A stretch of DNA of 269 nucleotides. It comes from Escherichia coli. GTDB taxonomy: Bacteria; Pseudomonadota; Gammaproteobacteria; Enterobacterales; Enterobacteriaceae. Positions 1-115 of this stretch are shown piece after piece. The position numbers and the translations under genes were made by a program. The stretch is from the NCBI RefSeq assembly GCF_003334315.1, contig NZ_QOWR01000139.1; one strand, written 5' to 3'. Each line of letters opens with the position of its first letter. Positions within the stretch are counted from its first letter, which is position 1. The notes under the pieces were generated by a model. It was not told where the DNA came from and did not search any database. It was given only the letters and a program-made list of their open reading frames with translations.

Positions 1-20
1 CTGATAGAAACAGAAGCCAC
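1..20 (-). CDS. insA: InsA (IS1 transposition regulator / N-terminal part of InsAB' transposase), 5' fragment only, first 6 codons
   Basis: The reverse complement of 1-20 is GTG GCT TCT GTT TCT ATC AG, encoding (M)ASVSI, which matches the known InsA N-terminus MASVSISCPSC. The GTG start is the complement of 18-20, preceded by a GAGG Shine-Dalgarno. The CDS runs off the left edge. Confidence 0.7.
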
Positions 21-40
21 TGGAGCACCTCAAAAACACC

Positions 41-68
41 ATCATACACTAAATCAGTAAGTTGGCAG
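41..68 (-). promoter_or_regulatory. insA promoter region within or next to IRL (approximate), with Shine-Dalgarno just downstream
   Basis: On the minus strand there is a -10-like TATGAT (complement of 41-46) and a weak -35-like CTGCCA (complement of 63-68) with a 16-bp spacer. A GAGG Shine-Dalgarno (complement of 28-31) lies 7 nt before the GTG start. The IS1 insA promoter is known to lie in the IRL region; the exact hexamer assignment is my inference. Confidence 0.4.
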
Positions 69-75
69 CATCACC
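53..75 (-). repeat. IS1 left terminal inverted repeat (IRL, about 23 bp)
   Basis: The reverse complement of 53-75 is GGTGATGCTGCCAACTTACTGAT, the canonical IS1 IRL. From established knowledge of IS1 this region carries the InsA and IHF binding determinants. Confidence 0.85.
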
Positions 76-115
76 AAGGAGAAGAAACAAACTTATTAAG
101 CTAGAATAGCCACGG

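Follow-up and report, generated by a model that had tools for sequence, protein, structure and literature searches.

The window, as we call the whole stretch of 269 bases that was analysed, is a 117-bp piece of the well-known glyS–hokA spacer of Escherichia coli (positions 76-192) lying between an end of IS1 (1-75) and an end of IS150 (193-269). The junction of IS1 with this spacer is real and unrecorded in the databases that we searched, but amounts to an ordinary strain-specific polymorphism caused by an insertion sequence in an already dead toxin–antitoxin locus. Each of the three components is base-for-base identical to catalogued K-12 sequence and the sole unrecorded thing is their juxtaposition. 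Its most likely origin, to which we give a probability of roughly 65%, is a recent simple insertion of IS1.

Results and Discussion

Positions 1-75 match the curated IS1A of K-12 (NC_000913.3 19796-20563) at 75 of 75 bases and the match stops on the annotated last base of the feature (L004 890-964), while blastn of the IS1 part against the same element gave E = 4e-36. The segment, on the minus strand, is the left, insA-proximal end of the element (IRL, element bases 1-75). When all seven curated MG1655 copies were compared, this 75-nt end was identical to that of IS1A, IS1B, IS1C, IS1E and IS1H and showed one mismatch to IS1D and nine to IS1F. The terminal inverted repeat of 23 bp, GGTGATGCTGCCAACTTACTGAT in the reverse complement of the window, is present at the element boundary (53-75, minus strand) and equals the end of the curated IS1A. 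Positions 1-20 (minus strand) carry the first 20 nt of insA with a GTG start at 20-18 and a translation beginning VASVSI, the coding sequence starting 55 nt inside the element end as it does in the curated IS1A. The only sigma-70-like match in the window is an inward-facing promoter-like site, CTGCCA-16-TATGAT (68-41, minus strand), which is located inside the IRL at what we take to be the place of the known insA promoter pIRL. The break at 75/76 reads …AGTAAGTTGGCAGCATCACC|AAGGAGAAGAAAC…, but as the target base preceding AAGGAGAAG is also a C, the breakpoint is ambiguous by one base and could be 74/75 or 75/76. Thus the first-pass annotation had correctly placed an IS1 terminus at 75 abutting AAGGAGAAG at 76-84, and the identity with the canonical IS1 end that it had noted is borne out by the curated element.

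The remainder of the window (76-269) agrees with E. coli K-12 at every base (100% identity; NC_000913.3 3,721,999-3,722,192, reverse strand), and a megablast search of complete genomes found 75-269 at 100% identity in many E. coli chromosomes. The gene order in K-12 is glyQ-glyS, spacer, IS150 (insJK), hokA and cspA; in several records the gene beside hokA is named 'CspE' by PGAP (L001 4933-5145, L002 5096-5308, L006 2028-2240), the curated K-12 name being cspA. Among 5,426 complete E. coli genomes, 1,642 (~30%) show the flank joined to IS150 and free of IS1, and in most of the remaining complete genomes the flank is followed by an intact hokA leader. No record in the plasmid collection holds the flank together with IS150. 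The flank had originally been described as unrecognised, which holds insofar as this is chromosomal DNA and not a classical IS1 context, but not for the sequence itself, which is readily recognisable as the glyS–hokA spacer of K-12. It had also been treated as one unknown stretch, whereas 76-192 contains the hokA promoter, the stump of the hokA leader and a sokA remnant and 193-269 belongs to IS150, an element that had been missed.

The IS150 part (193-269, minus strand) is the right end of the element, 77 nt long. Mapping of the curated IS150 (NC_000913.3 3720633-3722075) puts its end, 3722075, at window position 193 and the insK stop at 219, so that the last 16 insK codons and the stop occupy 219-269; over these last 77 nt both the terminus and the 3' part of insK (orfB) agree with the curated element. 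Plasmid-borne IS150 ends match from window positions 190-192 onward. Reading 193-269 as the left end of IS150 was considered and rejected on the basis of the curated annotation. Within the 3' coding end of insK, the motif GGTCTGA and its exact reverse complement TCAGACC, 7 bp each and 19 nt apart, form an inverted repeat (237-269) that ends with the window; it probably arose by chance or belongs to the end structure of IS150. In K-12-type hokA no 3-bp target duplication of IS150 was found (flanks …AAAGTT and TACTCG…), and IS150 replaces ~39 bp of the O157:H7 hokA leader, GAGGCCCCTCTATGTATAGACACCATAAGGTTAGCCTCT (L001 3118-3119 and 4561-4562; L006 1610-1660). IS150 at this place therefore represents an insertion accompanied by a small deletion, and this arrangement including the leader deletion is what the 1,642 genomes share at 100% identity.

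Between the two elements lies what is left of the 5' part of hokA. The promoter region (76-113, plus strand), as read from the sequence, has at 102-107 the -10-like hexamer TAGAAT, with weak candidates for a -35 element at 78-85. It is followed by the hokA mRNA leader, of which the first 78 nt are retained (114-191, plus strand) without any difference from the corresponding part of the intact O157:H7 leader. In this stretch the 5' hairpin (114-171) is preserved with a predicted folding energy of -26.7 kcal/mol (z = -3.96). The Rfam family RF01794 (hok/sok leader) matches 114-253 with 70.1 bits (gathering score 59), compared to 119.6 bits for the intact O157:H7 locus without IS150. We did not take this extent at face value, as the homology to the intact O157 locus stops at 191: the alignment runs for ~60 nt over the IS150 end (192-253) with many non-canonical pairs, and the reported coordinates overstate the RNA element. 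The gathering score is also passed by 114-191 alone. Position 1 of the model, together with the known 5' end of the plasmid R1 hok mRNA, places a putative transcription start of hokA at 114. The opposite strand carries the remnant of the antisense RNA sokA (157-191, minus strand), obtained by mapping the curated K-12 pseudogene b4614 (NC_000913.3 3722077-3722111). A functional hok/sok module would have its leader contiguous with the mok and hok frames and a complete sok. Here IS150 starts at 193, ~39 bp of the leader are missing relative to O157 and hokA lies beyond IS150; in the curated K-12 record sokA and mokA are both pseudogenes.

To define how widespread the IS1 junction is, we searched several collections. 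Megablast with the whole window and with a junction-only 51-mer did not find it in the 5,426 complete E. coli genomes, and exact 30-mer scans did not find it in the GTDB species representatives or in the JGI metagenome contigs, an absence that refers to these named collections and not to Shigella genomes, draft assemblies or raw read archives, which lie outside them. The earlier impression that the flank is unlike any known IS1 context is therefore supported for the exact junction within these three collections. A literature search on hokA with IS150, IS1 or glyS returned nothing on the IS1 junction. The predicted reciprocal junction (…TATATCAAGGAGAAG followed by the IRR end of IS1) was likewise absent from the 5,426 genomes, where only partial matches of 86-91% at unrelated IS1 copies were obtained. 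An IRL end of IS1 in the orientation of the window and within ~600 bp of the flank was present in only two of the complete E. coli genomes, those of CP131_Sichuan and Stbl4. As so many genomes have IS150 next to this flank and no IS1, the IS1 event must be younger than the IS150 event and strain-specific. The junction, with the sequence GTTGGCAGCATCACCAAGGAGAAGAAACAA, could serve as a marker for typing of strains or lineages.

In contrast to the junction, the uninterrupted target is present in essentially all 5,426 complete genomes. In K-12 and O157 it reads …TATATC|AAGGAGAAG|AAAC (in longer form AATTTTATGAGATTTTTTTAGGATTATATC|AAGGAGAAG|AAACAAACTT), and the suggestion that 76-269 could be used to locate a contiguous target in related genomes has thus worked for K-12, O157 and others; of the two signs by which the first-pass annotation would have recognised a plain insertion, this one is present. 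The site is non-coding and located 135 bp past the glyS stop, ~90 bp past the glyS terminator hairpin and, measured from the IS1 end, at -38 from the putative hokA start. The DNA around it is poor in GC, with 24% within 25 bp and 28% within 50 bp compared to 49% for the 6-kb locus. Lee et al. 2016 (PMC5009759) describe 233 IS1A insertions and give for IS1 duplications of 8-9 bp, no sequence motif and an AT-rich preference, together with a non-coding bias of IS1A of P = 7.9e-12. They confirm the duplication length on which the first reading of the window had relied, and the AT-rich, non-coding site fits these known target preferences.

We infer a simple insertion over a rearrangement, and also its recency and neutrality. 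The host chromosome would have belonged to a lineage that already carried IS150 in hokA/sokA, as K-12 does, and an IS1A-type element would have moved into the AT-rich DNA that separates the glyS terminator from the hokA promoter, its transposase cutting the target at …TATATC|AAGGAGAAG. The insA end would thereby have come to lie toward hokA, with the promoter of IS1 itself pointing away from it. Positions 76-84 (AAGGAGAAG, or AAGGAGAA if the duplication is 8 bp) are then the putative right-hand copy of the target duplication, and a simple insertion should have left a second 8-9 bp copy, AAGGAGAA(G), at the unseen far end, where …GGATTATATCAAGGAGAA(G), …TATATCAAGGAGAA(G) or …TTTTTTTAGGATTATATCAAGGAGAA(G) would be expected directly outside the IRR end (GGTAATGACTCC…; 5'-GGTAATGACTCCAACTTATTGATAG… when reading into the element). 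A second copy of AAGGAGAAG, on which the first-pass annotation had based its distinction between a simple insertion and a rearrangement, is the right criterion for this. Transposition is favoured because the break falls exactly at the terminus of the element, a position that a random misjoin would rarely hit. In mutation-accumulation lines of K-12, 758 new IS insertions were counted against 98 IS recombinations (98 of 857 events), insertions thus being ~8 times more frequent.

Less probable, but the alternative that deserves most weight, is that the junction is the endpoint of an IS1-mediated rearrangement. Intramolecular transposition could have caused a deletion or inversion next to the element, or an IS1 that landed here could have recombined with another IS1 copy. 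The DNA past the far IS1 end would then not be the glyS terminator and would lack a repeat of AAGGAGAAG. Resident copies lend this some weight, since only three of the seven curated MG1655 copies have a target duplication (IS1D GACAATACG and IS1E GACATTAAA with 9 bp, IS1H CATAAATG with 8 bp), while IS1A, IS1B, IS1C and IS1F have none (L004, L007, L011); a resident IS1 thus often has no duplication. A second point in its favour comes from the same locus in CP131_Sichuan, where an IS1 in the same orientation and 89 bp away has a truncated yiaL at its other end and no target duplication and therefore marks a rearrangement junction, which would imply an IS1-mediated inversion or translocation beside the essential glyQS. 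The third is Stbl4 (NZ_CP081009.1; L003 3119-3300), where the IS150 copy breaks off at its base 54 and continues into the last ~106 nt of an IRL end of IS1. After this IS1 remnant comes GAGAACACAAATGG…, which in MG1655 is the place where IS1B meets IS30B in prophage CP4-6, and the join reflects either a large-scale rearrangement or a connection made through IS1 during assembly. IS recombination also accounts for 98 of the 857 events in the mutation-accumulation lines. Given the resident copies and CP131_Sichuan, the caution about a rearrangement in the first-pass annotation was well founded, even if simple insertions are ~8 times more frequent among new events and nothing in the window directly points to a rearrangement. 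Moreover, a leftward deletion is excluded because the neighbouring glyQS, encoding glycyl-tRNA synthetase, is essential, leaving only an inversion or a translocation. We weighted the prior for new events above that for resident copies because the junction is strain-specific and so probably recent, and on this basis a simple insertion is preferred.

That IS1 was wrongly attached to the hokA spacer during short-read assembly is very improbable. The form of the source might raise this suspicion, as it is only 269 bases long with 75 nt of IS1 (77 when the following AA is included) at one end and 77 nt of IS150 at the other, and the junction was found nowhere else in the collections searched. These two repeat ends may well reflect an edge of a k=77 de Bruijn graph bounded by repeats in a genome with many IS1 copies. 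If so, this would account for the missing far end of IS1, and junction-spanning k+1-mers must have existed in the reads, since a graph edge needs them, which argues against an artefact. So does the coincidence of the break with the final base of IS1, a position that a random chimera would reach in ~1 of 768 cases, and so does a target that is typical for IS1. In general, short contigs bounded by repeats cannot settle whether an IS copy is a simple insertion.

Equally slim is the chance that the IS1 is one arm of a Tn9-like composite transposon or part of an integrated plasmid or cointegrate. IS1 forms composite transposons as well as cointegrates, and the far side of the present copy is unseen; against this, the flank is chromosomal and not cat, no plasmid record holds it together with IS150 and there is no sign of cargo DNA in the window.

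With respect to its consequences, a simple insertion is expected to be without phenotype because the glyQS terminator lies upstream of the site and the hokA transcript was already cut from mok/hok by IS150. No outward promoter on the plus strand reading from the IS1 end was predicted in the window. A hybrid IS1/hokA outward promoter was also considered and rejected, since the TTGGCA of the IRL is 34 bp from the -10 element and thus too far away, and no plus-strand promoter was predicted. The insertion removes AT-rich DNA upstream of the -35 region of hokA and might in this way weaken the promoter. The IS150 of the window locus, the IS1 of CP131_Sichuan and the IS1 remnant of Stbl4 all lie within ~300 bp. 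It would be a rather far-fetched conclusion, which we consider doubtful in the extreme, that IS1 at -38 is non-neutral and a second, selected hit silencing the hokA/sokA remnant with its truncated leader and sokA transcripts, or that it marks a large IS1-mediated inversion beside glyQS, the hok locus in either case being a recurrent, selected landing pad for insertion sequences. The components and the locus are already known and the insertion site is unrecorded but ordinary. As such the junction adds to the cases in which insertion sequences have accumulated at chromosomal hok loci; it bears on no open question of IS1 or hok/sok biology and matters little.

Comparison with known systems

The composite transposon Tn9 (IS1-cat-IS1) shares the IS1 terminal sequence with the window, but the flank of the window is the hokA promoter region instead of cat and there is no sign of a second IS1 arm. 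The first-pass annotation had noted that this is not the Tn9/cat junction, and the 100% identity of the flank to the K-12 chromosome agrees with this. A closer parallel is IS1H upstream of flhDC in MG1655 (NC_000913.3 1978503-1979270), an IS1A-type element with the same 75-nt IRL end, which likewise sits in an AT-rich regulatory intergenic site just upstream of a promoter and has the 8-bp duplication CATAAATG. The IS1H insertion raises flhDC expression and motility, whereas in the window hokA has already been severed by IS150 and no effect is expected. CP131_Sichuan (NZ_CP053720.1) has IS1 in the same orientation and the same spacer, followed to the right by the same IS150 and hokA, but its IS1 is a full 768-bp copy whose insertion point, immediately behind the glyS terminator, is 89 bp to the left of that in the window (L002 2308-3075). 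The closest counterpart is the K-12 hokA::IS150 locus (insJK with the pseudogenes sokA and mokA), to which 76-269 of the window is 100% identical. None of the 1,642 genomes of this K-12 type carries IS1 at 75/76, and what sets the window apart from them is an additional insertion sequence at a distance of 117 bp from IS150.
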